Below, piece by piece: positions 1-52,352 of a stretch of 64,000 nucleotides of DNA. The translations under genes and the position numbers were made by a program. The stretch lies in the NCBI GenBank assembly GCA_964511315.1, contig CAZEFF010000005.1, positions 159-64,158 of the forward strand. Reading direction: 5' to 3'. Position 1 is the stretch's first letter, and each line of letters starts with the position of its first letter. The notes beneath the pieces are model-generated. The model searched no databases. It worked only from the letters and a program-made list of their open reading frames with translations, and was not told where the DNA came from. Source of the DNA: an uncultured bacterium (GTDB taxonomy: Bacteria; Omnitrophota; Omnitrophia; Omnitrophales; Aquincolibacteriaceae).

Positions 1-424
1 CGATCATGTGACGGCCGATCACCCGTGAAATCACAATGACGCGTTTCCCCCAGCCCATAATTTGACTTAAAGGATGATTAGAATAATAGCCATGACAAGT
101 TGTCACAAACGGTACAAGGGCCTTGCGCGCGGCAAACCAGCCGATCCACGCCGGAACACGGCTCCGGGCATGGACAATGTCGACACGTTCACGTTCAATA
201 ATTTGCGCGAGTTGCGAAACCAAGGACAATGAGAAAAGAGATTTTTTATGGACCGGAAGCAGATAATGCGTCACATTCATTTTTTGAAGTTCGGAGACAA
301 GCTCTCCCCCGGATGAGACCACCACGGTATCATGCCCCCGCTTTTTAAGCGCGCGGGCAAGATCGATAACACCCCGCTCGACGCCGCCGACATCCAAGGA
401 AGGAATAAGCTGTAATATTTTCAT
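1..424 (-). CDS. Glycosyltransferase family 1/4 (GT-B fold), N-terminal part only; the gene continues past the window start. Probably LPS core/lipid A glycosylation given its operon.
   Basis: Minus-strand ORF with ATG at 424-422 overlapping the upstream stop (ATGA). My translation begins MKILQLIPSLDVGGVERGVIDLARALKKRGHDTVVVSSGGEL, a typical GT4 N-terminal domain. It is last in the waaA-lpxK-lpxL operon. Confidence 0.7.
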   Translation of the reverse strand, partial: MKILQLIPSLDVGGVERGVIDLARALKKRGHDTVVVSSGGELVSELQKMNVTHYLLPVHKKSLFSLSLVSQLAQIIERERVDIVHARSRVPAWIGWFAARKALVPFVTTCHGYYSNHPLSQIMGWGKRVIVISRVIGRHMI

Positions 425-4745: not shown

Positions 4746-5624
4746 CTATGCATGCGGATGAGCGGAATCGTAGACTTCTTTAAGCCGCTTTGTCGTCACA
4801 TGGGTATAAATTTGTGTGGTCGATAAATTTTCGTGACCTAATAACTCCTGCACACTTCTAAGATCAGCGCCGCGGTCAAGCATATGGGTCGCAAAGGAAT
4901 GCCTCAGCATATGCGGAGAAACTTCCTTACGCAAAGCAATGCGGCGCGCGTACTTTAAAATCATTCTCCGGACACTCCGGTCTGTTAACCGTCCGCCTGA
5001 ACGGTTCATATAAAGGGCCCGTTTACCGCCGCCGTCATTTTCTCTGGGCGCTTTCATTGCCATGTATTCCTGAATCGCTTTGGCGGCGATAGCACCGACC
5101 GGAACGATTCTTTCTTTCTTACCTTTTCCCCGAACCCGAACAAGCCCTGAAAAAAAATCAACATCGTCGTGGTTGAGTCCAACTAGCTCGCTGACGCGAA
5201 GCCCGGAACTGTAAAGCGTTTCTAAAATCGCGCGGTCTCTTTTTTCTTCCCAGGTATTTTTAGAAGGGGCCTCAAGCAAATTGGTGATTTCAGTAGGTTC
5301 CAAAAATTTGGGGAGTCTTTTTTCTCTTTTAGGTGTCGCGATCGTCGCGGCGGGGTTTGTCTGCAGCACTTGCTCCCTGACAAGGTATTTAAAAAATGAG
5401 CGCAGGCAGGCTAATTTCCGGGCAATTGTGCTCTTAGAATAAGACCGGTTTTTCAAAACCGCTAAAAAAGAACGGATATCGAGGTAGGTGATATTTGAAA
5501 CGGGTTTCTTTTCTAACGTCCCGGTAAATTCACGGAGATCGATCAAATAATTTTTGACCGTATGGTCAGAAGCATTTTTTTCGTTGGAGAGAAACTGGAG
5601 AAAGCTTTGAGCGTGATTATCCAT
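4746..5624 (-). CDS. Tyrosine site-specific recombinase, XerC/XerD family
   Basis: 292 aa; catalytic-region motifs HMLRHSFATHMLDRGADLRSVQELLGHENLSTTQIYTHV with the terminal Tyr; N-terminal SAM-like domain. Stop overlaps the topA stop region (co-directional). Confidence 0.85.
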   Translation of the reverse strand: MDNHAQSFLQFLSNEKNASDHTVKNYLIDLREFTGTLEKKPVSNITYLDIRSFLAVLKNRSYSKSTIARKLACLRSFFKYLVREQVLQTNPAATIATPKREKRLPKFLEPTEITNLLEAPSKNTWEEKRDRAILETLYSSGLRVSELVGLNHDDVDFFSGLVRVRGKGKKERIVPVGAIAAKAIQEYMAMKAPRENDGGGKRALYMNRSGGRLTDRSVRRMILKYARRIALRKEVSPHMLRHSFATHMLDRGADLRSVQELLGHENLSTTQIYTHVTTKRLKEVYDSAHPHA

Positions 5625-13994: not shown

Positions 13995-14869
13995 TTCTGA
14001 CCCAGCGCGCTGCTAAGCGCTTTACGCATCACAAGAATCGGCGCCTTCTTGCCTGTCCAATATTCAAATGCTTTAGCGCCCTGATAAAGAAGCATTCCGA
14101 GTCCATTCAATGTTTTATGACCTTTTAATCGCGCCTGTTTTAAAAAACGGGTCTCTGCAGGCTTGTAAATCAAATCCACATAACATTGTTTTTTGCCATC
14201 TCGGGCTAAAGGAATCTGCCCCGCTGTAACCACCGCTCCATCACCCGCTTTAAGGCCGAGCGAAGTGCAGTTCACAATCAAATCCGCTTTCTTCAGCATA
14301 GCCAGCAGCAGCTGATCTTTAAGCGAAATTGTCTGCCACTCAACTTTCTTAAATTGGCGTTTAAAATCACGCGCCAGTATTTGGGCCCGGGATAAATGCC
14401 GGTTCACTATCGTAATTTCTTTAACGCCTTCTGAGGCAAGTCCATAAGCCGCTGCCCGCGCGCTTCCGCCGGCGCCAAAAATCAAAACGGATTTTCCTTT
14501 GGCTTTAAATTTGGCATCAAGCCGAAGGGATGTTATAAACCCATAAACATCCGTGTTCGTTCCCGACCATTGACCTTTTTTTCTGAAAACGGTATTTACG
14601 GCGCCAACCGCCCGCGCTTCAGGCGTCAACGATTTAAGACCCCGCTTCACCGCCTCTTTATAAGGAACCGTCACATTAAAACCGTCCAAAGGAAGGCGGT
14701 GAAGCGACTTCATCGTTTTCGAGAAATACCGGGGATGAATCTCGCACACAATGTAATAGGCCTTCAGGCCTGCGGCGCAAAACGCCGCTTCCTGCATTGC
14801 CGGAGAAAGCGTGTGGGAAAGCGGATACCCCAAAATCCCAAAAAGCTTAAATGGCGCCTTCAAGGTCAC
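13991..14869 (-). CDS. aroE: Shikimate dehydrogenase AroE
   Basis: 292 aa; LFGILGYPLSHTLSP substrate motif and GAGGSARAAAYGL NADP Rossmann motif. Confidence 0.9.
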   Translation of the reverse strand: MTLKAPFKLFGILGYPLSHTLSPAMQEAAFCAAGLKAYYIVCEIHPRYFSKTMKSLHRLPLDGFNVTVPYKEAVKRGLKSLTPEARAVGAVNTVFRKKGQWSGTNTDVYGFITSLRLDAKFKAKGKSVLIFGAGGSARAAAYGLASEGVKEITIVNRHLSRAQILARDFKRQFKKVEWQTISLKDQLLLAMLKKADLIVNCTSLGLKAGDGAVVTAGQIPLARDGKKQCYVDLIYKPAETRFLKQARLKGHKTLNGLGMLLYQGAKAFEYWTGKKAPILVMRKALSSALGQK

Positions 14870-16416
14870 AAAGGTGAATGCTGTGAAATTTCCCGGGCAA
14901 ATTTGCTGGATAATTTATTCAGCGCGAAAAGATAGGCCTTCACGCTGGCTTCAATAATATCCGTGCTCATGCCGCGGCCGGTGACTTCTTGGTGATTATT
15001 GGCAAGTTTTACAGCCACTTCACCCTGCGCGTCCATACCGCTCGTAATGGCCTGAATTCCATAATGCGTTACGCGAGCTCCTGATTTGACAATTTCTTCG
15101 ATCGCTTTGTAACAGGCATCTACTGGGCCGTCGCCATAGGCTTCAGCTTCTTTGCTTGCGCCTTTGTAACTTAGGCGGATCTTTGCCATGTTTTTTTTGC
15201 CGGTCTCACAAGAAACTTTTAAAAATTCCAACTTCCAGGTTTCCGCGACTTGCCCGACCTGATCATCAATCAGGGCTTCGATATCCTGATCAAACACATA
15301 TTTTTTCTTATCCGCCAATTGCTTGAAACGGCTAAAGGCTTTATCCATATCCGCATCAGAAAGTTTATAGCCGAGTTTTTCCGCGCGTTCTTTAAACGCG
15401 TGACGGCCCGACAATTTCCCGAGCAATAATTGATTTCCGGAGAGTCCGATTTTTTTAGGGTCCATAATCTCATAGGTCTGGCGTTTTTTAAGAACACCGT
15501 CCTGATGAATGCCGGACTCATGAGAAAACGCGTTGCGCCCCACAATCGCTTTATTCGGCTGCACTACCATACCGGTTAAATGCGAAACCAAACGCGAAGC
15601 CTTTGTGATTTCTGACATCTTAATATCCGTATAGCAATTCATGAAATCTTTACGGGTATCAATAGCCATCACAATTTCTTCAAGCGCCGCGTTGCCGGCG
15701 CGCTCACCGATTCCATTGACTGTGCATTCCACCTGATTGGCACCGGCCAAAACAGCCGCCAAAGAGTTGGCCACTGCCAGGCCCAAGTCATTGTGGCAAT
15801 GGACTGAAAGAAATACGGATTTCCCAAGCTCCGGATTTTTTTTAATCAAAAACCGGATCACGTCTTCAAATTCCTGCGGCACGGTATATCCCACCGTATC
15901 CGGCACATTGATAGACTTCGCTCCGGAATCAATCGCGGCCCGAACGACTTGCGCCAAAAAAACAGGCTCAGTGCGCGCCGCATCTTCGGGCGAAAATTCA
16001 ATTTCTTTAAATTCCCTGCTGGCCGCTTTAATGTTCTCGCGGACCATGGCTAAAATCTCTTTTTTATCTTTTTTCAGTTTGTACTGAAGATGAATCTGCG
16101 AAGTGGCCAAGAAAACATGAAGCCGCTTCCGGCGCGCGTTTTCTAAGGCCTTTTTGCAGGCTTCAATGTCGCGGGGCAGCATACGCGAAAGTCCGCAAAT
16201 CACAGGTTTACGGATTTCTTTTGCGATCATGCTGACAGCCTGCATTTCGCCGGGCGAAGAAGCAGGAAAACCTGCTTCAATCACATCAACGTTTAAACGC
16301 TCAAGCTGCTTGGCGACTTTCAGTTTTTCATCGGGGGTAAGAGACGCGCCGGGAGATTGTTCGCCGTCACGCAAGGTGGTGTCAAAAATATAGATTTTTC
16401 TTTTCGATTCTTTCAT
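14866..16416 (-). CDS. leuA: 2-isopropylmalate synthase LeuA (long form with C-terminal regulatory domain)
   Basis: 516 aa; IFDTTLRDGEQSPGASLT, HCHNDLGLAVANSLAAV, C-terminal LeuA dimerisation/regulatory domain. Confidence 0.9.
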   Translation of the reverse strand: MKESKRKIYIFDTTLRDGEQSPGASLTPDEKLKVAKQLERLNVDVIEAGFPASSPGEMQAVSMIAKEIRKPVICGLSRMLPRDIEACKKALENARRKRLHVFLATSQIHLQYKLKKDKKEILAMVRENIKAASREFKEIEFSPEDAARTEPVFLAQVVRAAIDSGAKSINVPDTVGYTVPQEFEDVIRFLIKKNPELGKSVFLSVHCHNDLGLAVANSLAAVLAGANQVECTVNGIGERAGNAALEEIVMAIDTRKDFMNCYTDIKMSEITKASRLVSHLTGMVVQPNKAIVGRNAFSHESGIHQDGVLKKRQTYEIMDPKKIGLSGNQLLLGKLSGRHAFKERAEKLGYKLSDADMDKAFSRFKQLADKKKYVFDQDIEALIDDQVGQVAETWKLEFLKVSCETGKKNMAKIRLSYKGASKEAEAYGDGPVDACYKAIEEIVKSGARVTHYGIQAITSGMDAQGEVAVKLANNHQEVTGRGMSTDIIEASVKAYLFALNKLSSKFAREISQHSPL

Positions 16417-30126: not shown

Positions 30127-30699
30127 CTAGCTTTCAATTTTTTTCAGAAGTTTGCCGAGCAGTTCTTTAGGAAGTCCGATCACATTCGTGCGGGACCCTG
30201 TGATTTTCTGAACAATCTTAAACCCTTCCTGAATCGCGTAAGCCCCTGCTTTATCTAATGGGTTTACCTGTCCAAAATACTTTTCCATTTTTTTAGACGT
30301 CAGCTTTTTCATCCGCACTTTCGTGCAGGCAAAATCAGCCGTGATTTCCCCAGTCGCAAGGTTTTTTAAAGCAACGCCGGTGTAAACCCGGTGCTCCCTG
30401 CCGGAGAGTTTCGAAAGGGTTTTAAACGCGCCGCTTATTCCCTTCGGCTTACTGTAGATGACGCCGTCCAGCCACACAATCGTATCCGCGCCGAGCAAAA
30501 CACCTTTACGGCCGGAAACTTTGGCTTTTTTTATTTTTCCAAGCGCGTGGCGAATGACCAGTTTTTCGGGGTGCGCGGAAGAATGATTTTTTTCTTCGTA
30601 AGAGGATGGAACAATTTTGAATTTAAAACCAAGGTTTTTTAAAATATCGCGCCGGCGGGGCGATTGGGACGCGAGAAAGATGAAAGGCTTCTTGCTCAT
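30127..30699 (-). CDS. maf: Maf-like nucleoside triphosphate pyrophosphatase (septum formation protein Maf)
   Basis: 190 aa; IFLASQSPRRRDIL N-terminal motif and Maf/Ham1 fold; 4-nt overlap with the valS stop. Confidence 0.85.
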   Translation of the reverse strand: MSKKPFIFLASQSPRRRDILKNLGFKFKIVPSSYEEKNHSSAHPEKLVIRHALGKIKKAKVSGRKGVLLGADTIVWLDGVIYSKPKGISGAFKTLSKLSGREHRVYTGVALKNLATGEITADFACTKVRMKKLTSKKMEKYFGQVNPLDKAGAYAIQEGFKIVQKITGSRTNVIGLPKELLGKLLKKIES

Positions 30700-33410
30700 T
30701 GAAAAATAGCGAGGAGTTCCTGATTAGCTTTGAGAACTTTTTCGGCGTCCGCGAGCTTGTCGCGTTCTGACTGCACCACGTCCACGGGGGCGTTCTTCAC
30801 AAAATTATCATTTGAGAGTTTTGTCTTTTGAGTCTGCACGTAACGCAGAGTCTCCTGAATTTTCTTCTCGATTCTTCCCCGTTCTTTGTCAAAATCGACA
30901 ACCCCTTCGAGATAAACATAAACTTCAAAATCCGGGAAGGAATTACCGGCGACGGTTTTGCTTTTCTGAAAATCTGAGCGGATCTCAACCGTCTCTAGCC
31001 GCCCAAGCTTCATCATTTCTCTTTCAAATTCTTTCATAATACCAATGAGCTTTGAACTCTTCGAGTGAATGACCGCTTTGAGAGCCTGAGAGGGCGGAAT
31101 ATTGAGGCGCGTTCTAAGATCACGAATACCCGCCACGGCTTTCTGGACCTGGTCCAAAGCGTATTCCGCTTCAGCGTCACGGAGCTTGGCGTGGGCTTCT
31201 GGCCAAGCGGCAAGCATAATCGAGTCGGCCCAATTGGCCCCCCTGGGGGCCAATTCACGAAGTTTTTGCCAAATTTCTTCTGTCACAAATGGCATAAAAG
31301 GCTGAAGAAGCCGGAGGATTTTTTCTAAAACAAAGAATAAGACTTTCTGGGTATTTTCTTTCTGCGCGGCGTCGCTGCCGGTCATTGTCGGCTTGGCGAG
31401 TTCAATGTACCAGTCGCAAAAATCATTCCAGACAAAGTGATAAATATCGGTAGCCGCCTGAGAGAAACCAAAACTGCCGAGCTGCTCATTCATGGTTTGA
31501 ATAATAGATTGAAGACGCGACAAAATCCATCGGTTCGCGAGCGGAAGCGATTTGAAATCAAATTCCGCTTCGGCGCTGCCTTTCGTGAACCCGTCAAGAT
31601 TCATCAGCGCGAACCGCGAGGCGTTCCAGATTTTATTCGTAAAATTCCGGCCGACTTCAAATTTTTCGCGCGAAAGAAAAACGTCCTGCGCGGAAAGCAT
31701 AATCATGCTATGACGAAGCGCGTCCGCGCCCATTTCGTCAATCACTTCAAGCGGATCGATTGAATTGCCCAGAGACTTGGACATTTTCTTTCCGTCCGCG
31801 GCGCGCACGGTTCCGTGAATATAAATCCGGCTGAACGGAACTTCGCCAAGAAACTCCAGGCCGGCCATAATCATCCGCGAGACCCAAAAGAAAATAATTT
31901 CAGGCGCGGTGATTAAGTCAGAGGTCGGATAAAAATATTTGAGGTCTTCCGTTTTTTCGGGCCAGCCGAGCGTCGAGAAAGGCCAAAGCCAGGAAGAAAA
32001 CCACGTGTCGAGCACGTCAGGATCCTGCCGCAGAGAAACTTTTTTGCCGTGTTTTATTTCAGCCGCGGCAAGCGCTTCCTGCTCGGTCCGCGCGACAAAA
32101 ACTCCGCCCTGCTCGTCATACCAAACTGGGATTTGATGCCCCCACCAAATTTGGCGGGAAATGCACCAGTCGCGGATGCCTTCGAGCCAATTGGTATAAA
32201 CCTTAGTCCAGCGGTCGGGAGTAAAAACAGTTTTACCTTCACGGTGCGCCTTAAGCGCCTTGTCCGCGAGCGGTTTCATTTTCACAAACCATTGCTTCGA
32301 CAGGTACGGCTCAACCACCGTGTCGCAGCGGTAGCAATGCCCCACCGCGTGCATATGCGTGTCGCGCTTTACAAATAATCCCTGAGCTTCGAGATCGGCA
32401 ATCACTTTCTTGCGCGCGGCAAAGCGGTCCATGCCTTTGTAAGCGCCGCCGTTTTCATTAATTTTGCCGTCGGGATGCATGACATTGATTTGAGCGAGAT
32501 TGTGCCGCTTGCCCATTTCAAAATCGTTCGGGTCATGCGCGGGCGTTACTTTGACAAAACCGGTTCCAAATTCACGGTCCACAAATTCATCGCCAATAAT
32601 TGGAATTTCACGCTCGATCAATGGCAGGATCACTTTTGTTCCGATCAGATGTTTGTAGCGCTCATCTTCAGGATTCACAGCTACCGCCACGTCGCCAAGC
32701 ATGGTTTCAGGCCGCGTCGTCGCGACAACGATATGATCAACGCCAATTTGCTCAGCTTGTTTTCCTTTGCCGGCAATGGGATATTTCAAATGATAAAGTC
32801 CGCCTGAGACATCTTTATGCGCAGACTCTTCGTCTGAGAGTGCTGTCTGGCAGCGCGGGCACCAGTTAATAATATAGTTGCCTTGATAAATCAGTCCCCG
32901 CTCGTGAAGCGTGACAAAGGCTTCGCGGACCGCTTTGGAGAGTCCTTCGTCCATGGTGAAACGTTCACGGGTCCAGTCGCAGGAAGCCCCGAGACGTCTC
33001 AGCTGATTCGTAATGGTATTGCCATGATCTTCTTTCCACTTCCAGACTTCTTCGAGAAATTTTTCGCGGCCAAGGTCGTGGCGGGTCTTTTTTTCTTTGG
33101 CGAGTTTTTTTTCAACGACGTTTTGCGTGGCAATGCCCGCGTGGTCAACTCCGGGAATCCAAAGCGAGTCATTCCCTTTCATTCGGTTCCAGCGCGTGAG
33201 CACATCCTGAATCGTATTGTTCAGCGCGTGGCCCATATGAAGAATACCGGTAACATTTGGCGGCGGAATCACAACCACGTAGCGGGTGTCGCGGAATTTT
33301 TTCCCGGCCTTGTCGCTTTTAGGACGGAAGTATCCCTTGGACTCCCACTTAGGGTAGAGGCGTGTATCAATCGACTTGGGTTCGTAACGGGACGGGAGAG
33401 GCTCGGACAT
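30696..33410 (-). CDS. valS: Valine--tRNA ligase ValS
   Basis: 904 aa; class I HIGH (PPPNVTGILHMGHA) and KMSKS motifs, editing domain, C-terminal coiled coil. Confidence 0.95.
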   Translation of the reverse strand: MSEPLPSRYEPKSIDTRLYPKWESKGYFRPKSDKAGKKFRDTRYVVVIPPPNVTGILHMGHALNNTIQDVLTRWNRMKGNDSLWIPGVDHAGIATQNVVEKKLAKEKKTRHDLGREKFLEEVWKWKEDHGNTITNQLRRLGASCDWTRERFTMDEGLSKAVREAFVTLHERGLIYQGNYIINWCPRCQTALSDEESAHKDVSGGLYHLKYPIAGKGKQAEQIGVDHIVVATTRPETMLGDVAVAVNPEDERYKHLIGTKVILPLIEREIPIIGDEFVDREFGTGFVKVTPAHDPNDFEMGKRHNLAQINVMHPDGKINENGGAYKGMDRFAARKKVIADLEAQGLFVKRDTHMHAVGHCYRCDTVVEPYLSKQWFVKMKPLADKALKAHREGKTVFTPDRWTKVYTNWLEGIRDWCISRQIWWGHQIPVWYDEQGGVFVARTEQEALAAAEIKHGKKVSLRQDPDVLDTWFSSWLWPFSTLGWPEKTEDLKYFYPTSDLITAPEIIFFWVSRMIMAGLEFLGEVPFSRIYIHGTVRAADGKKMSKSLGNSIDPLEVIDEMGADALRHSMIMLSAQDVFLSREKFEVGRNFTNKIWNASRFALMNLDGFTKGSAEAEFDFKSLPLANRWILSRLQSIIQTMNEQLGSFGFSQAATDIYHFVWNDFCDWYIELAKPTMTGSDAAQKENTQKVLFFVLEKILRLLQPFMPFVTEEIWQKLRELAPRGANWADSIMLAAWPEAHAKLRDAEAEYALDQVQKAVAGIRDLRTRLNIPPSQALKAVIHSKSSKLIGIMKEFEREMMKLGRLETVEIRSDFQKSKTVAGNSFPDFEVYVYLEGVVDFDKERGRIEKKIQETLRYVQTQKTKLSNDNFVKNAPVDVVQSERDKLADAEKVLKANQELLAIFQ

Positions 33411-34970
33411 TTATCCCTTCAGCAGTTTATACGCGATCGCTTCGACGAGGGCTTTCCAGCTGGCTTCCACGATATTTTCGTTCACGCCGACCGTGGTCCA
33501 AGTTTTCTTTGTGTCCTGAAATTCAATGAAGACGCGGACTTTCGCGGCAGTGCCCGCTTCAGAATTCACCACGCGCACTTTATAGTCGGTCAAACGGATT
33601 TCGTTGACGATTGGATAAAAAGTGACAAGCGCGTCACGCAGAGCGCGGAAAAGCGCGTCCACAGGACCGTGCCCGGAAGCTTTTTTTGTTTGCGTGGATT
33701 TTTTGACCATGACTGTCACGCGCGCCTGAACTGTGGGATTCTGCTCTCCAATTTTCTCAGAAGAAACTTCCACGTCCTGCGTTTCGAAAAATTTCTTTTC
33801 GCGGCCGGTTAACCGATGCACCAAAAGTTCAAAGCTCGCTTCCGCGGCTTCAAATTGATAGCCTTCGCTTTCAAGACGCTGAATTTCGGTCAAAATCTTC
33901 CGCGTTTCGGGGGATTCTTTCTGCAGATCAAGTTCGAGTTCTTTGGCCTTCAGCATGATATTGGTTTTTCCGCCAAGCTCTGAAATTAAATAGCGGCGGT
34001 GATTCCCAATGAGCTTGGGGTCCATATGTTCATAAGTTTTCTGGTTTTTCATCATCGCGTTAATATGCACGCCGCCCTTGTGCGCGAAGGCCGAACGGCC
34101 GCTGAAAGGCTGATTGGTCATCAGCGGCATATTGCAGATTTCAGCCACGTAGTGAGAAACTGCCGTAAGTTCCTGCATTTTTTTAGGAGGCAGGCATTGA
34201 CGGTTCATTTTAAATTGAAGATTCGGGATGATGCTGACAAGGTTCGCGTTGCCGCAGCGTTCGCCGATGCCATTGATCGTCCCCTGCACAAGCACCACGC
34301 CTTCTCCGACAGCCTGCAGAGAATTAGCAACGCCCAGCTCACCGTCATTATGAACGTGAATGCCAAGCGGTGTTTTCACCGAACGCTTCACGCGCAAAAT
34401 GGCGTGGCGGATTTCATGAGGCAAACGCCCGCCGTTAGTTTCACATAGCGAAAGATTGTCGGCACCGGCTTTGGCCGCGGCCTGAAGCGTTTTGATCGCG
34501 TATTCAGGATTGGCCCGGAACCCGTCAAAAAAATGTTCCGCATCGTAAATCACTTCTTTTTTCTTGGATTTTAAATAATGCACAGAATCTTCGATCATCT
34601 GAAGATTTTCTTTTAAGGAAATTTTAAAAACATCCGTGACATGAAGATCCCAGGATTTTCCAAAAATCGTAACCACCTTAGTTTCAGCTTCGAGCAAAGC
34701 CTTGATTTGAGGATCTTCAGAAACCTTAACATGCGCGCGACGGGTGGAACCGAATGCCGCGATTTTTGACGTACGGATCCCCGCTTTTTTGATGTCCTTA
34801 AAGAAAGCCATATCCTTGGGGTTGGAGCCCGGCCAGCCGCCTTCAATGTAATGAACGCCGAACTGATCGAGACGCTTAGCGATAAGGATTTTGTCATGAA
34901 CAGACAGACTGATGCCTTCGCATTGAGTACCGTCACGTAAGGTTGTATCGTATAAGAGTACTTTTTTCAT
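33411..34970 (-). CDS. cimA: (R)-citramalate synthase CimA (LeuA-family, short regulatory-domain type)
   Basis: 519 aa; LYDTTLRDGTQCEGISLS, YIEGGWPGSNPKD (citramalate-synthase-type motif), HNDGELGVANSL; separate from the canonical leuA at 14866. Confidence 0.8.
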   Translation of the reverse strand: MKKVLLYDTTLRDGTQCEGISLSVHDKILIAKRLDQFGVHYIEGGWPGSNPKDMAFFKDIKKAGIRTSKIAAFGSTRRAHVKVSEDPQIKALLEAETKVVTIFGKSWDLHVTDVFKISLKENLQMIEDSVHYLKSKKKEVIYDAEHFFDGFRANPEYAIKTLQAAAKAGADNLSLCETNGGRLPHEIRHAILRVKRSVKTPLGIHVHNDGELGVANSLQAVGEGVVLVQGTINGIGERCGNANLVSIIPNLQFKMNRQCLPPKKMQELTAVSHYVAEICNMPLMTNQPFSGRSAFAHKGGVHINAMMKNQKTYEHMDPKLIGNHRRYLISELGGKTNIMLKAKELELDLQKESPETRKILTEIQRLESEGYQFEAAEASFELLVHRLTGREKKFFETQDVEVSSEKIGEQNPTVQARVTVMVKKSTQTKKASGHGPVDALFRALRDALVTFYPIVNEIRLTDYKVRVVNSEAGTAAKVRVFIEFQDTKKTWTTVGVNENIVEASWKALVEAIAYKLLKG

Positions 34971-35052: not shown

Positions 35053-36318
35053 TCAAATGGCGACCTTGGATTTTTTTCCGCTAATTCGTGATTCTTTGGC
35101 GGGACCCTTGCTAAGTTCAAATTCTTCATGAACCGCCCGGAGCGCTTCCTTGCCTTTGCCGCCCTCAACCACACAGGAAATTTTGATTTCCGAAGTAGAG
35201 ATCATTTCGATATTAATCTTTTTCTTGGCAAGCGCCGCGAACATACGCGAGGCAATACCCGAGTGAGCTTTCATTCCGACACCCACAACGCTGACTTTCG
35301 CGATGTTTTCATCACATGTCACCTGTTTGGCGCCAAGTTCTGCAGCCGCCTCTTTGACCTGAGGCAAAGCGCGCGATAATTCATTTTTAAACACCGTAAA
35401 TGAAATATCAGTAGCATTCGTCTGTGTTTTATTTTGAATAATCATATCAATATTGATATTCGCCTTGGCCAGCTTCGCGAAAAGTTTGGCGGCCATTCCC
35501 GGAACGTCAGGAACTTGAAAAAGAGTAACCTTCGCTTCATCATCCGCTAGAGCCACACCGCTTACTAAAATATCTTCCATTTCTTTTGTCTCCTTTGTAA
35601 TCAAAGTACCTTTGCTTTCGTGCTGCGAATGGCGAACATAAATCGGAACTCCGTATTTTTTCCCAACTTCAACCGAACGCGAATGCATGACCTTAGCGCC
35701 AAGCGCCGCGAGCTCAAGAATTTCATCGTAGCTGATCACATCGATTTTCCGGGCGTCCGGAACCACACGCGGATCCGCGGTGTAAATGCCGTCCACATCA
35801 GTAAAAATTTCACAGTATTTCGCTTTGAGCGCGCGGGCAAGCGCTACCGCCGTTAAGTCAGACCCTCCGCGGCCGAGGGTGGTGATTTCTCCAGCCGGCG
35901 TTTGCCCCTGAAAACCCGCGACCACAACGATATTTCCATCACGCAAAGCCTTATGAATACGGTTTCCGTCAATATCAACAATCCGCGCCTTTGAGTGGAA
36001 TTGATCGGTAATAATTCCGACCTGCGGCCCTGTAAACGAAACCGCTTTTTCTCCCAATTCATGAATCGCGAGCGCGAGCAGCGCGACCGAAACTTGCTCT
36101 CCGGTTGAAAGAAGCATGTCCATTTCACGCGTGCTCGGATTTTTGGAGATTTTTTCAGCAAGCTGAATCAAATCATCGGTCGTATCCCCCAACGCGGAAA
36201 CGACCACAACTACTTGGTTGCCCTGTTTTTTTGTTTTTACGACCCGGCGCGCGACGTTTTGAATTTTCTCAACATTCGCGACCGAAGAACCGCCGAATTT
36301 TTGAACCACTAAACTCAT
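35053..36318 (-). CDS. lysC: Aspartate kinase LysC (monofunctional, two ACT domains)
   Basis: 421 aa; [15 protein letters not shown] kinase motif; C-terminal tandem ACT domains. Confidence 0.92.
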
Positions 36319-36349: not shown

Positions 36350-37546
36350 TTATTTCGCCAGAAAGAAGGGCAAAAGATCCGCCCCCTTTCCCATTTTTAA
36401 TTCCGATGTCTTTGCGGCGACTTCTGAAAATTTTTCGATATCGTCGGGCATAATATTTTTTCCGGAAATTAGAAACGGAACCGTTTCGCGGACATGCCTG
36501 CCGGATTTCCAAGGAGCCACATGACACGGCGTTACAATTAGCCGGATTTCCTTGTGCTGTTCAACATATTCTTTGATTCGCGACATCAAAAAGTAGTCAA
36601 TCGCTTCAATCGCGGAAACTTTCGCTTTCAAATCGCCTAGGCGCGAGGCTTCATCGCAGGCTTCAAGATGAAGACAGACAAAGTCTTTTTCATTCAGCGC
36701 CTCAAAAACGGCTTTGGCGCGGCGGTCATAATCAAGCTCCGGATTATCCGGAACACTTTCCACTTCACGCACGGTCAACCCCGCGAGGCGGCCGACTCCT
36801 TTAGCGTATTCAAGATTCGCGACCAGCGCGCCGGAAACTCCGTTTCGGTCAAAAAATTTTTCGAAAACGGGTTTTCGCCCCTGGCCCCAAAGCCAAATCA
36901 TATTGGCCGGGTTCTCGCCCAAATCCACGCGCACTTGATTGATTTCATGATCCTGAAGAAGCAGCCGGGCATCAAACATCAGTTTTTTCAGCAATTCTTC
37001 GCCGGGGCCTTTCGGGAAATTAGATTCCAATTTTTCTCCAACAACAAATTCAGGATTCACCGTGCGGGCTGACAGCGCTTCAAACCCGTGTGAGTCCTTT
37101 AAGACAGCGATATGTTTGTAAAATGTCCCTGGGAAAAATCGGACAAAATCACTCGCGACTTTTTTGTTCAAAAAATTGATGAGCGCCTTAGCTTCTTTCG
37201 TCGTCAAATTTCCGCCGGTTTCATCGGCGAGCAGTCCTTCCGCTTCGGTAATAAAATTCATGCGGAATGCGATCTCATTGTCTTCGAGCTTCAATTCAAG
37301 GTTCGCCGCTTCCAAAGGACCAAGACCGGTGTAAACCTTGTCCGCGTCGTAACCGAGAGCGCTTAAAAATGTCACATCCGAAGAAGGCTCAAAGCGGTCA
37401 GAATAAAGCTTCGCCTGCCCCACCTTGCCATTTTTAGCAAAGCTGTTCAGATTTGGAATTTTGGCAACTTCAAGCGGTGTCTTTTCTCCTAGTTCTTCAC
37501 AAGGCTGATCCGCGGCGCCGGACATTGTTATCAATAAATATTTCAT
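36350..37546 (-). CDS. Cofactor-independent phosphoglycerate mutase family (archaeal ApgM-type) protein in the thrB position; proposed non-orthologous homoserine kinase
   Basis: 398 aa; ApgM-like N-terminus (GKTPLEVAKIPNLNSFAKNGKVG ... SSDVTFLSALGYD ... YTGLGPLEAANLE). Lies between lysC and thrC, which it overlaps. No GHMP-type thrB in the cluster. Confidence 0.75.
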   Translation of the reverse strand: MKYLLITMSGAADQPCEELGEKTPLEVAKIPNLNSFAKNGKVGQAKLYSDRFEPSSDVTFLSALGYDADKVYTGLGPLEAANLELKLEDNEIAFRMNFITEAEGLLADETGGNLTTKEAKALINFLNKKVASDFVRFFPGTFYKHIAVLKDSHGFEALSARTVNPEFVVGEKLESNFPKGPGEELLKKLMFDARLLLQDHEINQVRVDLGENPANMIWLWGQGRKPVFEKFFDRNGVSGALVANLEYAKGVGRLAGLTVREVESVPDNPELDYDRRAKAVFEALNEKDFVCLHLEACDEASRLGDLKAKVSAIEAIDYFLMSRIKEYVEQHKEIRLIVTPCHVAPWKSGRHVRETVPFLISGKNIMPDDIEKFSEVAAKTSELKMGKGADLLPFFLAK

Positions 37547-38637
37547 AACTTCACAACCTTTCGAACCGCTTCAATCGTGGGTTCCACGGTTTCAATTTTA
37601 TCGTCAAAACTCAAAGCATAATCAGGATCTTTCAAACCTGACCCGGTCAAAGTGATTACAATCCTTGTACCTTCTTCAAAATAATTCCGCGCGGCCAATT
37701 TGCGGACACCCGCCACAGCCGCAGCCGAAGCAGGCTCAGCGAAAACGCCTTCGCGCTCTGCGATAAAACGGTAAGCCCAGCCGATTTCTTCATCCGTCAC
37801 AGATTCGATTAAACCGCCGGACTCATCTCGAGCCGCCAGCGCGCCCTGCCAGCTGGCTGGATTTCCAATGCGGATCGCTGTCGCCACTGTTTCAGGGTGA
37901 TCCACTTTCTTACCCAGCACAATCGGAGCGGAACCCGCGGCTTGAAAACCAAGCATCTTCGGAAGGCTTTCGGATTTTCCTGCTCGCTTATATTCGTTAT
38001 AGCCTTTCCAATACGCGGTAATATTGCCCGCATTCCCCACAGGAATCGCGTGATATTCCGGCGCGTCACCCAAGTCGTCTACAATTTCAAAGGCCGCGCT
38101 CTTTTGTCCTTCAATGCGGTAAGGATTAATGGAATTTACCAAAGTAATTTTTCCGTCTTTGGTCATGAGCTTCACCACTTCAAGCGCTTGGTCAAAATTG
38201 CCTTTGATCATGATGGTTTGCGCGCCGTAGCGGTAAGCCTGCATCAATTTACCCTTCGCGATCTTACCTTCAGGGATAAGCACAAAACATTTAAGACCGC
38301 AGCGGGACGCGTACGCGGCGGCAGAAGCCGAAGTATTTCCGGTCGACGCACACATCACCGCTTTCGCGCCGTCTTCCACCGCTTTTGAAATCGCCATCGT
38401 CATTCCGCGGTCTTTAAATGAACCGGTCGGATTCAAACCTTCAAACTTATAATAAACACGGACATTCTTGAGTTTCAGCTCTTTCGGAAGAGCCTCCGCC
38501 AAAATAAGCGGCGTATTGCCTTCATTCAGCGAAATAATCGGCGTGCGGTCGGTGACCGGCATGAATTCCTGGTACCGTTCAATCACTCCGATTTTTTTGA
38601 CCGCGTATTTTTTGGTAACCATATTAATTCCCTTCAA
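37543..38637 (-). CDS. thrC: Threonine synthase ThrC
   Basis: 364 aa; PLP-lysine motif SFKDRGMT and MCASTGNTSASAAAYA. Confidence 0.92.
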   Translation of the reverse strand: MKGINMVTKKYAVKKIGVIERYQEFMPVTDRTPIISLNEGNTPLILAEALPKELKLKNVRVYYKFEGLNPTGSFKDRGMTMAISKAVEDGAKAVMCASTGNTSASAAAYASRCGLKCFVLIPEGKIAKGKLMQAYRYGAQTIMIKGNFDQALEVVKLMTKDGKITLVNSINPYRIEGQKSAAFEIVDDLGDAPEYHAIPVGNAGNITAYWKGYNEYKRAGKSESLPKMLGFQAAGSAPIVLGKKVDHPETVATAIRIGNPASWQGALAARDESGGLIESVTDEEIGWAYRFIAEREGVFAEPASAAAVAGVRKLAARNYFEEGTRIVITLTGSGLKDPDYALSFDDKIETVEPTIEAVRKVVKL

Positions 38638-39919
38638 TCCGCAAAACTTGCGGCACGCCTTTCACAACATTTAATTTGCTGATCGCTTTGATCGCCGTCC
38701 GCACATCTTTCTCATGAGCGTCATGCGTTAAAATAATCAAAGGCACCACTCCGCCGGCGCTGCGCTCCCGCTGAATCATGTCAGAAATGCTGATATCATG
38801 CTTCCCTAAAACATCGGAAAGCTTCGCCAAAACACCCGGGCGGTCTGCCACATGAAACCGCAAATAATAGCGGGACAAAATAGATGAAATGTTTTTTATT
38901 TTCAGTGTACGGCTAATCGCGCGCAAAGGAATCGCGGCTTCCTCAAAACGGTCATCCCGGCGTTTTGCGATATCGATCAAGTCACTAAGAACCGCACTCG
39001 CTGTCGGCCGCGAGCCCGCGCCGCGCCCGTAAAGAAGCACATCGCCTACTTCACTGCCATGCAGCAAAATCGCGTTAAATGAACCATTCACGCTGGCAAG
39101 AATATGAGTCCTCGGCAGCAAGGTTGGCTGCACACGGGCTTCAATGCCGTCCTGCTGAACCTTCGCAATGGCTAAAAGTTTAATTTTGTATCCAAATTCT
39201 TCAGCAAACGCGATATCTTCACTCCGAATCGTTGTGATCCCCTCGCAGTGAATATCTTTAAACTTCACTTTTCCGCCAAACGCGAACCGCGCGAGCACCG
39301 CGAGTTTATGCGCGGCGTCTACGCCTTCAATGTCCAGCGTAGGATCTGCTTCGGCATAACCTTTTTGCTGAGCCTCTTTAAGCGCTTCCTTAAAATCCGT
39401 TTTCGCTTCACTCATGCGCGTCAAAATATAATTCGTTGTTCCGTTGATAATTCCGTGGATAGCGTCAATTTTATTAGCCACCAAACCTTCACGAATCGCT
39501 TTAATCACCGGAATTCCACCGCCGACGGAAGCTTCGAAAAATACCCAGCGGCGTTCCCGGTTTGCAAGTTCTAGAATTTGGTCACCCTGTTCCGCAAGCA
39601 GCGCTTTATTGGCTGTCACGACATGCTTGCCGTGCAAAATAGCTTCCTTAACCAGCTTGGAGGCTTCTTTTGTTCCACCGATCAATTCCACAACCACATC
39701 AATTGACGGATCCCGGACAATCGAATAAGGGTTTTTAGTTAAAAGATTTTTGGGCACGCGGATGGAGCGCTTTTTCCCGGGGTTTTTGACCGCGATTTTT
39801 TTAATTTCGAGGCGCACACCAATTTCCCGAGCGAAAAAGTTTTTCTTTTCGCTGAGCGCGGCAAAAACTCCGCCGCCAACTTGGCCAAGCCCCAATAATC
39901 CAATGCGTAATGTCTTCAT
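38624..39919 (-). CDS. hom: Homoserine dehydrogenase Hom (with C-terminal ACT domain)
   Basis: Start taken at MKTLRIGLLGLGQVGGGV (NAD Rossmann) at 39919; the ORF track extends to 40021 through an implausible N-extension. Catalytic domain then a C-terminal ACT domain. Confidence 0.88.
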   Translation of the reverse strand: MKTLRIGLLGLGQVGGGVFAALSEKKNFFAREIGVRLEIKKIAVKNPGKKRSIRVPKNLLTKNPYSIVRDPSIDVVVELIGGTKEASKLVKEAILHGKHVVTANKALLAEQGDQILELANRERRWVFFEASVGGGIPVIKAIREGLVANKIDAIHGIINGTTNYILTRMSEAKTDFKEALKEAQQKGYAEADPTLDIEGVDAAHKLAVLARFAFGGKVKFKDIHCEGITTIRSEDIAFAEEFGYKIKLLAIAKVQQDGIEARVQPTLLPRTHILASVNGSFNAILLHGSEVGDVLLYGRGAGSRPTASAVLSDLIDIAKRRDDRFEEAAIPLRAISRTLKIKNISSILSRYYLRFHVADRPGVLAKLSDVLGKHDISISDMIQRERSAGGVVPLIILTHDAHEKDVRTAIKAISKLNVVKGVPQVLRIEGN

Positions 39920-40122
39920 AAAAAGAATGTAACTCGTGTTTTGAAGCGAGTTTAAGAGTAAAAAAGGCGTGTTAGTATATCGCAGGAAGGTCCAAAAAGC
40001 AATTACGGCAAAAATCGGCATTCTCCTATAGGAAGGCCTTTGAGATTAAAGGATAGGTTTGCGGGAGATGGGATCTTTAGAGTATACTACGGGCGTCTTT
40101 TTAACCCTTTCGGAGGCAATTG

Positions 40123-50295: not shown

Positions 50296-51063
50296 TTAGC
50301 CGCAGATACCGCGCGGAGATTCCTGCAAAAAATTAACCAGGATATCTAAAGCCGGCGTTTTGGGGAGCTCCGCTTGAATTTGAGCGATCGCGCTTTTGAG
50401 CGAAAGTCCCGAGCGGAAAATAATCTTGAATGCTTTCTTTAGCGCGGCTTTTTCTTCTTTAGAAACGCCCGCGCGGTTTAATCCAACCGAGTTCAGGCCA
50501 AATGCTTCGGCCGGATGACCATCGACCATCATGTACGGCGGAACATCCTGAACAACTTTAGAGCAGCCTCCGATAATCGCCAGATGTCCAATATGCACAA
50601 ATTGATGAACACCTGTGAGTCCGCCAATAATTGCGGCGTCGTCCACCACAACATGCCCAGCAAGAGTGGCTGAATTCGCCAGAACAGTGTTGTTTTTAAC
50701 AATGCAGTCGTGTGCCACATGGCAGTAAGCCATCAGCAAATTATCATTCCCAATTACAGTTTCTGTCCCCGGCTTGGTACCGGGATTAATCGTGACATAT
50801 TCACGAATTTTATTCCGGCTGCCGATTTTAAGATAACTAATCCCCCCTTCAAATTTTTTGTCTTGGGTACGGCTCCCAATCACAGCACCGGTAAAAATTT
50901 CATTTTCCGCACCAATAATGGTATTACCTTCAATGGTCGCGCGGGGTCCTACAATAGTCCCGGGACCGATTTTTACCGGTCCGGAGATAATCGCGTAGGG
51001 CCCCACCTGAACATCTTCAGCCAGTTCAGCGATCGGATCAACAATCGCTGTCGGATGGATCAT
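50296..51063 (-). CDS. lpxA: UDP-N-acetylglucosamine O-acyltransferase LpxA
   Basis: Start MIHPTAIVDP at 51063 (TGATG overlap with the lpxC/fabZ stop); left-handed beta-helix hexapeptide repeats; C-terminal helical domain. Confidence 0.9.
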   Translation of the reverse strand: MIHPTAIVDPIAELAEDVQVGPYAIISGPVKIGPGTIVGPRATIEGNTIIGAENEIFTGAVIGSRTQDKKFEGGISYLKIGSRNKIREYVTINPGTKPGTETVIGNDNLLMAYCHVAHDCIVKNNTVLANSATLAGHVVVDDAAIIGGLTGVHQFVHIGHLAIIGGCSKVVQDVPPYMMVDGHPAEAFGLNSVGLNRAGVSKEEKAALKKAFKIIFRSGLSLKSAIAQIQAELPKTPALDILVNFLQESPRGICG

Positions 51064-52352
51064 CAACGATCCACGACTGCGAACTTCACTTCCGCTTCGC
51101 ATACAAGCTTTTCTCCCACATAAGCGCGTCCCGAACATTGTCCGGTTTTCGCGCGGATTTTCGTGACCTCGACTTCCATGCGGAGCTCGTCGCCGGGAAG
51201 TACGGGTTGACGGAATTTCGCGAAATCAATGCTCATAAAATAAGCGATTTTGTTCCGATTTTCAGGCTTGCTGAGCATAATCACACCGCCGACTTGCGCC
51301 ATGGCCTCAATAATCAGAACCCCAGGCATCACCGGATGTCCGGGAAAGTGGCCTTGAAAAAAGTAATCATTCATAGTCACTTGTTTGAATCCGACAGCTT
51401 TGACGCCGGGTTCAAAATTCTCAATCCGGTCCACAAATAAAAATGGATAACGGTGCGGAATAATTTTTTGAATAATTTCCGCATTTAAAACAGCCGGCAG
51501 CGGAGAAGGCAGAAGATCATCTTGTTGTTGGCTCATGGCTAGTTTCCTCACAAATTCAAGATTTAAGGCATGCCCGCTTCGCGTAGCGATCACATGCCCT
51601 TTGATAAAACCGCCGACCAAAAACAGATCCCCGAGGAGATCGAGAATTTTATGGCGGCAGGCCTCATCCTCAAAACGAAGCTTGTTTTGGATAGGTTCAT
51701 TTTTTTCAAAAACGAGAGTGTTGGAAAGATTCGCGCCTTGTCCAAAACCCTGGGCTAAAAGAGCCTCGGCTTCCTGCTTCAAGCAAAAAGTCCTAGCCGG
51801 GGCCAGATCCCGTTCGAAAATTTCAGGCAGGATCGTCATGGTCAAAAACTGATCCTTCAAATCTTCATGCCGATAACTGAGCATGTAGGAAATCATCAGA
51901 TTCGGCGCGGGAAGAATGATCAAAGACTGATCACCGCGGTCAATAAAAACAGGCTTCTCCACGGTCAAATAACGCCGTACGGCTTCCTGCTCGAGCAATC
52001 CTACTTTTAAAATTGCTTCAACATACCCCGCCGAGCTTCCATCCATACCCGGAAGCTCCTCGCCGTCAACTTCCACATAAACATTATCAACACCAAGGCC
52101 GTGAAAAACGGCCATCAAGTGTTCGATCGTGCGGATTCGGCCGGCCCCAACTTTAAGGGCCGTCTGGCGCATTTCATCAGATGAAACCTGATCGGAAGCT
52201 GCTTTAACCTTAATCGAAGGGTCAAGATCTACCCTCGAAAAAACAATTCCGGCATTTGGTTCGGCGGGACAAATACGAAGCTTGGCTAGACGCCCCGTGT
52301 GAAGGCCTTGCCCTTCAAACGAAATTGGTTCGCGAAGCGTTCTTTGCTTCAT
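51063..52352 (-). CDS. Bifunctional LpxC-FabZ fusion (UDP-3-O-acyl-GlcNAc deacetylase plus 3-hydroxyacyl-ACP dehydratase)
   Basis: 429 aa; N-terminal LpxC (ISFEGQGLHTGRLAKLRICPAEPNAGIVF, HxxxD Zn site); C-terminal FabZ hot-dog (PHRYPFLFVDRI...HFPGHPVMPGVLIIEAMAQ). Confidence 0.9.
   Translation of the reverse strand: MKQRTLREPISFEGQGLHTGRLAKLRICPAEPNAGIVFSRVDLDPSIKVKAASDQVSSDEMRQTALKVGAGRIRTIEHLMAVFHGLGVDNVYVEVDGEELPGMDGSSAGYVEAILKVGLLEQEAVRRYLTVEKPVFIDRGDQSLIILPAPNLMISYMLSYRHEDLKDQFLTMTILPEIFERDLAPARTFCLKQEAEALLAQGFGQGANLSNTLVFEKNEPIQNKLRFEDEACRHKILDLLGDLFLVGGFIKGHVIATRSGHALNLEFVRKLAMSQQQDDLLPSPLPAVLNAEIIQKIIPHRYPFLFVDRIENFEPGVKAVGFKQVTMNDYFFQGHFPGHPVMPGVLIIEAMAQVGGVIMLSKPENRNKIAYFMSIDFAKFRQPVLPGDELRMEVEVTKIRAKTGQCSGRAYVGEKLVCEAEVKFAVVDR

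Follow-up and report, generated by a model that had tools for sequence, protein, structure and literature searches.

The closest described relatives of the protein analysed here belong to HomK (ThrB2), an iPGM-like homoserine kinase family found in thr operons and represented by TIGR02535 ('proposed homoserine kinase'). The existence of such a family, which the first-pass annotation of this DNA had invoked, is well founded: BT2402 of Bacteroides thetaiotaomicron and DET_RS08350 of Dehalococcoides mccartyi both rescue an E. coli thrB::kan mutant, and the authors of that work call diverged homologues HomK only if they possess the catalytic Ser together with the metal ligands (preprint 10.1101/2024.10.14.618325). 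HomK has been confirmed as a substitute for ThrB only lately. The second described relative is the archaeal-type phosphoglycerate mutase (PGM) ApgM, represented by PH0037 (PDB 2zkt), the Thermoplasma structures 3kd8/3idd and TIGR00306.

The window analysed here, a 64-kb stretch of DNA from an uncultured bacterium of the Omnitrophota, contains the gene string hom-thrC-X-lysC-cimA-valS, in which hom, thrC and X lie on the same strand and a 31-nt spacer separates X from lysC (Table 1). X has the two-domain fold of HomK and ApgM, occupies the same operon place beside hom and thrC as HomK, and carries the specificity Glu of HomK. Its description as an ApgM homologue overlapping thrC was correct, because the ORF has the ApgM/alkaline phosphatase fold and shares an ATGA with the stop of thrC. 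The first-pass annotation had also read hom-thrC-X-lysC as the full threonine branch apart from a GHMP-type kinase; the gene order stands, but asd is also absent from both the cluster and the window.

Table 1. Features of the hom-thrC-X-lysC locus (positions in the window; residues in X numbering)
Feature	Position	Strand	Remarks
X	36350..37546	-	398 aa, ATG start; HomK-derived ApgM-fold protein, catalytic centre decayed
thrC stop/X start overlap, ATGA	37543..37546	-	translational coupling
thrC, threonine synthase	37543..38637	-	TIGR00260, 319 bits; Met6 is the probable true start
hom, homoserine dehydrogenase with ACT domain	38624..40021	-	Met35 is the probable true start; Pfam and NCBIfam
lysC, aspartate kinase, monofunctional	35053..36318	-	Pfam and NCBIfam
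cimA, citramalate synthase	33411..34970	-	TIGR00977, 757 bits
valS	30696..33410	-	last gene in the string shared by the related loci
Cap (PhosphMutase) domain, residues 81-235	36842..37306	-	mean column entropy in the X clade 0.75 bits, vs 1.45 in the C-terminal core
Ser9 codon	37520..37522	-	at the position of the first Asp among the metal ligands (D9 of BT2402); clade: A, S or P; Asp in 0 of 120 closest homologues
Ser56 codon	37379..37381	-	phospho-enzyme nucleophile position, kept in X; 121 clade members: S 63, P 28, A 24
Glu295 codon	36662..36664	-	specificity position (HomK Glu, PGM Lys; E299 of BT2402); entropy at 98th percentile in the clade
D298-E-A-S-R302	36641..36655	-	D-x-x-x-H metal motif, His to Arg; clade at 302: R or L, never His
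C341-H342	36521..36526	-	DH metal motif, Asp to Cys; clade at 341: C, G or A, never D
His351 codon	36494..36496	-	third His ligand, kept in X; His in 46 of 121 clade members

The same gene string, hom-thrC-X-lysC-cimA-valS, is present wherever the contig permits in all 80 Omnitrophota species-level loci. The HomK signature (DDSDEDHDHH) is perfect in 34 of these 80 loci, which are the deeper-branching ones, and the degenerate and intermediate loci form a single clade in the tree that is nested among the intact-signature loci. By this nesting and by synteny, X is a positional and phylogenetic orthologue of HomK. The 4-nt ATGA overlap with thrC occurs at 25 of about 35 loci of the degenerate lineage versus 3 of about 29 intact-signature loci.

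Residues of X were mapped by aligning it to 2zkt and 3kd8 with HMMER, and the clade set comprised 121 members (120 closest relatives). Of the BT2402 residues that have been published, D9, S56, E299, D346 and H347 match this alignment at an offset of 4-5, with D274, H278 and H325 unplaced. The metal ligands, in X numbering, are D9, D298, H302, D341, H342 and H351; three of these six side chains, which do not include the nucleophile, are replaced in X (D9S, H302R and D341C). The segment ITMSGAAD of X aligns with ILDGLGD of 2zkt, which puts Ser9 at the first ligand Asp. The odd substitutions that had been pointed out near the N-terminal metal-binding DG motif (ITMSGAADQP) are therefore real, but Ser9 is just one among several active-site changes, and the decay is far larger than the N-terminal anomaly suggested. 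X retains S56, D57, E295, D298, H342 and H351 and is without R75 (Leu in X), H166 and the GATG..T....K motif (T271 and K276). Neither technical explanation held: the HMMER and MAFFT alignments concur and show conserved flanking motifs, excluding an alignment artefact, and the X protein is identical in two independent sequencing runs, excluding an assembly error behind the substitutions.

The decay extends beyond the signature, as revealed by entropy and lost-site tests that used positions outside the residues defining the groups. In HomK-signature proteins, R75, H166 and the 264-276 motif lie at the 0-13th entropy percentile, whereas in the X clade H166 lies at the 72nd percentile and the 264-276 motif at the 90th-100th; R75 is retained in approximately 80% of the clade, yet is lost in X itself. 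At fifteen non-signature positions, conservation is 90% or higher in the Omnitrophota proteins with an intact signature and below 50% in the degenerate ones. The number of conserved positions lost is 18 in X versus none in ThrC, Hom and LysC (0/364, 0/431 and 0/421 in the same comparison; 6/519 in CimA). The motifs SFKDRG, STGNTSAS, NSxNPyRIEGQK and GNAGN of ThrC are identical between the lineages. X nevertheless remains under purifying selection: its dN/dS within the degenerate clade is 0.04-0.12, similar to that of thrC, lysC and hom and to the median of the intact-signature HomK proteins (0.088). The AlphaFold2 model of X has a pLDDT of 96.3, and Foldseek aligned it to 2zkt with TM scores of 0.81/0.84 at 27% identity. 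The decay is thus specific to the X lineage and is accompanied by purifying selection and an intact predicted fold.

We see about an even chance that X is a HomK-derived pseudoenzyme, or otherwise repurposed protein, coupled to ThrC, and that O-phosphohomoserine comes from another enzyme. X is the Omnitrophales orthologue of HomK, the ApgM-like homoserine phosphotransferase that stands in for ThrB in many bacteria. In its lineage the catalytic centre of alkaline phosphatase type, which in HomK combines two metal sites and a nucleophilic Ser with residues for substrate binding and the specificity Glu, has decayed, while the predicted two-domain ApgM fold is retained and X is co-translated with ThrC. 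Because purifying selection acts on X as strongly as on ThrC, Hom and LysC, X should have a useful role, but not one in canonical phosphoryl transfer; most likely it would act as a non-catalytic partner, regulator or ligand-binding subunit working with ThrC, and the constraint on it may now be centred on the cap domain. Pseudoenzymes can persist as partners of active enzymes, as exemplified by the trypanosomatid AdoMetDC prozyme. X resembles such partners in its homology to an active enzyme, the loss of catalytic residues and the maintenance of purifying selection, but, as far as seen, its genome supplies no active paralogue as a counterpart.

Since ThrC is unchanged and needs O-phosphohomoserine, another enzyme outside the window would have to supply this compound. 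No GHMP, APH or HAD-type kinase was detected in the 64-kb window, which represents about one contig of the genome, by phmmer with E. coli ThrB, by screening for a GHMP motif or by Pfam analysis of some 55 ORFs. Likewise, the 10-kb flanks of X in the 80 related genome loci yielded no replacement homoserine kinase, and none appears in the Pfam neighbour lists of four loci (L001-L004). The KO lists of three Omnitrophota genomes contain hom, asd, lysC and thrC and lack K00872 and K02204, and K15635 is listed for two of the three (Seymour et al. 2023). However, two of these genomes (221 and 231; the third is 58) belong to the class Velamenicoccia, and their lists say nothing about the degenerate lineage because the sampled loci of that class have intact signatures. 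Our literature search returned nothing on homoserine kinase in Omnitrophota or on pseudoenzymes of the superfamily of X. Catalytic residues have been lost in at least two lineages, namely the main degenerate clade and P0121, which would call for several independent replacements or for a back-up enzyme that is widespread; this and the lack of a replacement kinase in the regions searched weigh against the pseudoenzyme reading. We infer a loss of activity in X, a non-catalytic role for it and the existence of a replacement kinase.

Another possibility, which we consider unlikely although not negligible, is that X itself makes O-phosphohomoserine by a remodelled centre, with one metal held by Ser56, Cys341 and His342 and with Arg302 in place of the second metal, or by direct transfer without a phospho-enzyme. 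Some members of the alkaline phosphatase superfamily, such as arylsulfatases and phosphonate monoester hydrolases, are one-metal enzymes in which Lys/His side chains replace the second metal, and their nucleophile and ligands are strictly conserved. X has, by analogy, a basic residue (Arg302) at the second-metal position and a possible remaining site at Ser56, Cys341 and His342; it is possible that Cys341 holds a metal and Arg302 a phosphate, and residual or altered catalysis in the subclade of X itself is likewise possible. In that subclade S56, D57, D298, R302, C341, H342 and H351 often occur together, and the change from His to Arg at position 302 recurs in other, separate degenerate lineages. 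The strong purifying selection on X, the clade-wide retention of the thrB slot and of the coupling to thrC, a ThrC that apparently still depends on O-phosphohomoserine, and the lack of any other kinase in the window or in the flanks of related loci would also be in accord with a remodelled catalyst. However, the clade of X, unlike arylsulfatases and their like, does not conserve the nucleophile or the ligands; the analogy is a mechanistic one and serves this explanation only. Ser is retained at the nucleophile position in 52% of the clade, and Pro or Ala is found in 43%, including relatives that are 68-71% identical to X and already have Ala56. Large subclades that share the operon have Gly or Ala at position 341 and Ile, Met or Gln at position 351. 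Furthermore, if the substrates were unchanged, the residues that bind them should have been retained, but the expected ones have been lost in the clade (R95, now Cys, H113, H166, GATG, T271, K276 and E295), which disfavours a remodelled centre.

It is also conceivable, although rather improbable in our judgement, that X has come to serve aspartate-family metabolism in a new way, as a catalyst or a ligand binder, through its highly conserved cap domain and not through the old cleft. In favour of this, the pattern of conservation is inverted: the cap domain is conserved better than the rest of the protein in the X clade, and less well than the rest in HomK-signature proteins. In addition, the degenerate clade has fixed 27 positions, mostly polar and cap-located, that vary among intact-signature Omnitrophota proteins, and the low dN/dS of X (about 0.05-0.1) would also fit. 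On the other hand, these 27 newly fixed positions are not clearly more than those in ThrC (21) or Hom (20), and the increase in conservation of the cap is not clearly above that of ThrC/Hom in the same clade; such counts are expected in a clade that is less diverse, and they carry no weight in our reading. No new motif matching a known family was found either, since Pfam and NCBIfam gave ApgM-type matches only.

The proposal of the first-pass annotation that X fits the pattern of a kinase encoded in a thr operon stood in part: the thrB slot, the ApgM fold and the perfect HomK signature of Omnitrophota proteins from the same operon all agree with it, but X itself does not look like a HomK enzyme. 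X matches PF10143 (PhosphMutase, 2.3e-34) and PF01676 (Metalloenzyme, 3.8e-27), and its sequence match to ApgM is 9.5e-43. Its score of 360.3 bits against TIGR02535, the model of the proposed iPGM-type kinase family, is 86 bits below the cutoff of 446.3, and that against NF003242 (373.6 bits) is below the cutoff of 426, whereas TIGR00306 (apgM) is passed with 372.2 bits against a cutoff of 320. All five intact-signature relatives scanned pass TIGR02535 (490-514 bits), and degenerate relatives fail it (284-431 bits). That X is an ordinary HomK in which the substitutions are tolerated is accordingly very improbable, even though its operon position, the presence of E295 and S56 and the HomK-type Glu, not PGM-type Lys, of its nearest canonical-signature relatives would suit such an enzyme. 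The residues that are replaced (S9, R302 and C341) or absent (R75, H166, GATG, T271 and K276) in X are all kept by 34 of 34 intact-signature orthologues and by 68 of 150 family representatives, and for this reason we regard them as required. X would also fail the HomK authors' check for the catalytic Ser and metal ligands, and neither the nucleophile nor the specificity Glu (13 different residues occur at this position) is conserved in its clade, the same being true of R75/R95, H166 and GATG..T....K. Finally, that X is a glycolytic cofactor-independent PGM or a decaying, functionless relic is hardly credible despite the TIGR00306 match and the public naming of its homologues as 2,3-bisphosphoglycerate-independent PGM, because PGM identity is disfavoured by the residues (Glu instead of the Lys found in 2zkt and 3kd8, ADETGGN instead of the DRRAGR substrate motif, and lost metal ligands) and by a context of threonine synthesis, not glycolysis, with gpmA (K01834) also present in genomes of Aquincolibacteriaceae, a family of Omnitrophales with the degenerate protein, and a relic is ruled out by the dN/dS values and by intact X ORFs in 45 species genomes.

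Public records label X-type proteins phosphoglycerate mutase, and glycolysis modules compiled for Omnitrophota include them as K15635. Both this label and the HomK label that context-based tools would give are probably wrong for the clade of X. Within a single conserved operon, the orthologues grade from a perfect catalytic signature by way of intermediates into complete decay; this natural series shows which residues are needed for activity and supplies ready-made negative controls. The case for X as a ThrC-coupled pseudoenzyme raises the questions of where uncultured, very small bacteria obtain O-phosphohomoserine and of what job a conserved dead enzyme performs beside threonine synthase. 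Tentatively, we suggest that in a large clade of Omnitrophales the sole enzyme known to phosphorylate homoserine may have become a non-catalytic protein coupled to ThrC, while ThrC itself continued to depend on O-phosphohomoserine. If this is true, there would be either a further, undescribed kind of homoserine kinase or an alkaline phosphatase fold capable of phosphate transfer in the absence of its nucleophile and metals.

The gene in the thrB slot of the threonine operon (X in the following) encodes a 398-aa protein that matches Pfam PF10143 and PF01676 as well as the solved ApgM structures 2zkt, 3kd8 and 3idd (E 1e-42 to 1e-38). Its AlphaFold2 model is confident (pLDDT 96.3, pTM 0.92), with 2zkt as the top structural match (TM 0.81-0.84), and the protein is identical in two independent sequencing runs. 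ATGA is common to the thrC stop codon and the X start codon, the gap between X and lysC is 31 nt, and no convincing promoter or terminator was found within the hom-thrC-X-lysC-cimA-valS string. The ORF overlap, the family and structure matches and the agreement of the two runs thus confirm the first-pass annotation of an ApgM homologue whose frame overlaps thrC in this operon. Other features of the window are also listed in the table, including two HMGL/LeuA_dimer paralogues and several domain combinations; many lipid A genes (lpxA-like, lpxB, lpxI, lpxK and kdtA) are present. The ThiS-family match in the topoisomerase I ORF represents either an unusual fusion or a small upstream gene read through.

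Coordinates of the threonine operon and of other features in the window
Feature	Position	Strand	Remarks
hom	38624-40021	-	mechanical call, probably over-long; family-model alignment starts at residue 35 (MKTLRIGLLG)
thrC	37543-38637	-	mechanical call, probably over-long; start probably Met6, not listed TTG
X	36350-37546	-	
X codon 302	36641-36643		His -> Arg at metal-ligand position
lysC	35053-36318	-	
cimA	33411-34970	-	citramalate synthase (TIGR00977, 757 bits); HMGL/LeuA_dimer
valS	30696-33410	-	
leuA-like	14866-16416	-	HMGL/LeuA_dimer; adjoins ilvC, ilvN, ilvB
topoisomerase I	5624-8119	-	in-frame ThiS-family match (PF02597, residues 13-74, E 4e-10) before Toprim domain
651-aa single ORF	421-2376	-	lipid A acyltransferase domain (PF03279) and Mito_fiss_Elm1 domain (PF06258)
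LpxC	51063-52352	-	joined to FabA/FabZ-like dehydratase domain

The family TIGR02535 was put forward as a ThrB replacement by the TIGRFAMs curators and was named ThrB2 by Ashniev et al. (PMC9026213). In the first attempt of Price et al., its member BT2402 did not complement an E. coli thrB mutant (PMC7311316); complementation by BT2402 and the diverged DET_RS08350 was reported later, the family was renamed HomK, and a phosphate donor other than ATP was proposed (10.1101/2024.10.14.618325). That preprint, which mentions neither Omnitrophota nor inactive homologues, names Ser56 as the catalytic residue and E299 as the specificity residue (Lys in phosphoglycerate mutases, PGMs), together with the metal ligands, and accepts diverged homologues as HomK only if these residues are present. 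A full HMMER scan covered 1.84 billion representatives, among which X and its close relatives fall into one 50%-identity cluster, and the next full-length relative shows only 43% identity. The exact HomK signature, DDSDEDHDHH, is found in 68 of the best 150 representatives, and roughly twelve others deviate from it slightly; two solved PGMs depart from it only by Lys at position 295. All five tested representatives of this type pass the TIGR02535 cutoff. At least two of seven core residues are changed in 40 representatives, and the tested ones fail the cutoff. The model search with X itself gave 360.3 bits, below the TIGR02535 cutoff of 446.3, while the broad apgM subfamily model gave 372.2 bits, above its cutoff of 320. 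A number of HomK-type proteins, among them P0148, P0152, P0153, P0156, P0170, P0208 and P0232, reach about 1000-1100 aa; their first 400 residues carry the full catalytic signature, and the C-terminal extension of 600-700 aa had no Pfam match in the four scanned (P0148, P0152, P0170 and P0232).

Using one genome per GTDB species, we found at least 590 loci with homologues of X. The best 80, which were analysed, derive for the most part from genomes whose titles read Omnitrophota or Omnitrophica, the rest being labelled only 'uncultured bacterium' or Planctomycetia, and all 80 show the hom-thrC-X-lysC-cimA-valS order as far as the contig reaches. Across these loci, the signature class tracks the distance from X: 34 loci with 52% identity or less, including those of Omnitrophus fodinae, 4484_213, 4484_171 and UBA6215, retain the perfect HomK signature; six loci with 52-55% identity are intermediate; and all 37 full-length proteins with at least 55% identity (X included) are degenerate, having lost metal-ligand or catalytic residues. 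The neighbour-joining tree, rooted on the PGMs, is a simple distance-based one that carries no support values; in it, intermediate and degenerate proteins form a single clade nested inside the intact-signature Omnitrophota HomKs, with the intact-signature protein of locus L049 as its sister. P0121, beside O. fodinae, represents a separate loss, and P0201 and P0130 are additional degenerate proteins on long branches whose loci share this synteny. A further degenerate homologue, P0136, has another arrangement (thrC-lepB-purC-X'), indicating that the gene does not occupy this slot in all lineages. Seymour et al. 2023 assign the degenerate RIFOXYB12_FULL_50_7 to the Aquincolibacteriaceae (Omnitrophales), the intermediate 01_FULL_45_10b to a different Omnitrophales family, and the intact-signature O. 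fodinae to the Omnitrophaceae. X is a true HomK orthologue.

The alkaline phosphatase superfamily has a well-known set of metal ligands: in the iPGM of B. stearothermophilus, D12/S62/D444/H445 coordinate one metal and D403/H407/H462 the other. Transferred by alignment with 2zkt (ligand positions 9, 56, 298, 302, 341, 342 and 351; specificity position 295), the corresponding residues of X are S9, S56, E295, D298, R302, C341, H342 and H351, with three ligands replaced. Further canonical residues are missing (R75 -> Leu, H166 -> Glu, GATG -> SVPD, T271 -> Leu and K276 -> Arg), and X has ADETGGN versus DRRAGR in PGMs and D-Y-S-A-G-H in HomK. The 120 closest database proteins (60-100% identity), whose source-named members are all from Omnitrophota MAGs (one labelled Verrucomicrobiae) and named phosphoglycerate mutase, form a clade of 121 with X. 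In this clade, canonical Asp9 is replaced by Ala (49), Ser (39) or Pro (31); the nucleophile Ser56 is kept in 63 members and replaced by Pro in 28 and Ala in 24; position 295 (canonically Glu) shows 13 different residues; His302 is never found (Arg in 92), nor is Asp341 (Cys 49, Gly 44, Ala 14); and His351 remains only in 46. Ala56 is already present in relatives with 68-71% identity to X, and the local alignment contains no alternative Ser near the nucleophile position (EPSSD, PPSPD, EPSAD, EPLPD). The His -> Arg change at position 302 recurs in separate degenerate lineages (P0121, P0136 and P0235). Arg302 may fill the vacant metal site. The main rival to a non-catalytic X is a remodelled catalyst, which could use one metal and Arg302 or dispense with the phospho-enzyme intermediate; with the nucleophile itself so variable, we regard this as rather improbable.

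The decay is concentrated in X. A position was scored as lost if it is conserved to at least 90% in the intact-signature lineage but to less than 50% in the degenerate one: such positions number 18 of 398 in X (15 outside the group-defining residues), 6 of 519 in CimA, and none in ThrC (364), Hom (431) or LysC (421). Both lineages share identical PLP- and phosphate-binding motifs in ThrC, which on this evidence still looks O-phosphohomoserine-dependent in the degenerate lineage. The dN/dS of X in the degenerate clade is 0.04-0.12, in the same range as those of thrC, lysC and hom and similar to that of intact-signature HomK (median 0.088). Of about 35 degenerate loci, 25 have the ATGA overlap with thrC, versus 3 of about 29 loci with the intact signature. 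Conservation has shifted: it peaks in the cap domain within the clade of X, whereas in HomK-signature proteins this domain is the least conserved. A new cap-domain function is a slightly weaker candidate than a remodelled catalyst.

The 64-kb window contains neither a GHMP, APH or HAD candidate nor another ApgM paralogue, and the flanks of the 80 related loci contain no GHMP kinase. The aspartate-semialdehyde dehydrogenase gene (asd) is also absent from the window despite the clustered aspartate kinase, hom and thrC; pathway genes therefore do sit elsewhere, and the lack of thrB in the cluster proves little. As far as the KO lists of Seymour et al. 2023 for genomes 58, 221 and 231 go, all three contain K00003, K00133, K00928 and K01733; K00872 and K02204 are missing from each, and K15635 is listed once each in genomes 58 and 231. 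Genomes 221 and 231 are assigned there to the class Velamenicoccia, whose sampled loci have the intact signature. These data support HomK as the homoserine kinase in Velamenicoccia, a conclusion that applies to that class and not to the lineage of X. In the entries of Table S5 of the same study, K15635 counts in family 01-FULL-45-10b (genomes 146, 149 and 150; intermediate X signatures) are double those of neighbouring families, which hints at a second ApgM/HomK-like gene. The Aquincolibacteriaceae entries show one K15635, and gpmA (K01834) also in two of three genomes, so X is not needed there as a PGM; that X is a PGM, or a relic gene despite its low dN/dS, is very unlikely. The earlier proposal of a HomK-type homoserine kinase is supported for the descent of X but not for X as such an enzyme, with its score under the family cutoff and its replaced ligands; an ordinary HomK is unlikely.

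We found no description of a decayed HomK clade in the searchable literature. X should be labelled neither HomK nor phosphoglycerate mutase. The reading that we favour, at about even confidence and on comparative sequence grounds, is that the lineage of X lost alkaline-phosphatase-type catalysis, and that this HomK-derived protein would have been retained in close coupling with ThrC, serving a role that makes no use of the former active site; some other enzyme would in that case supply O-phosphohomoserine.
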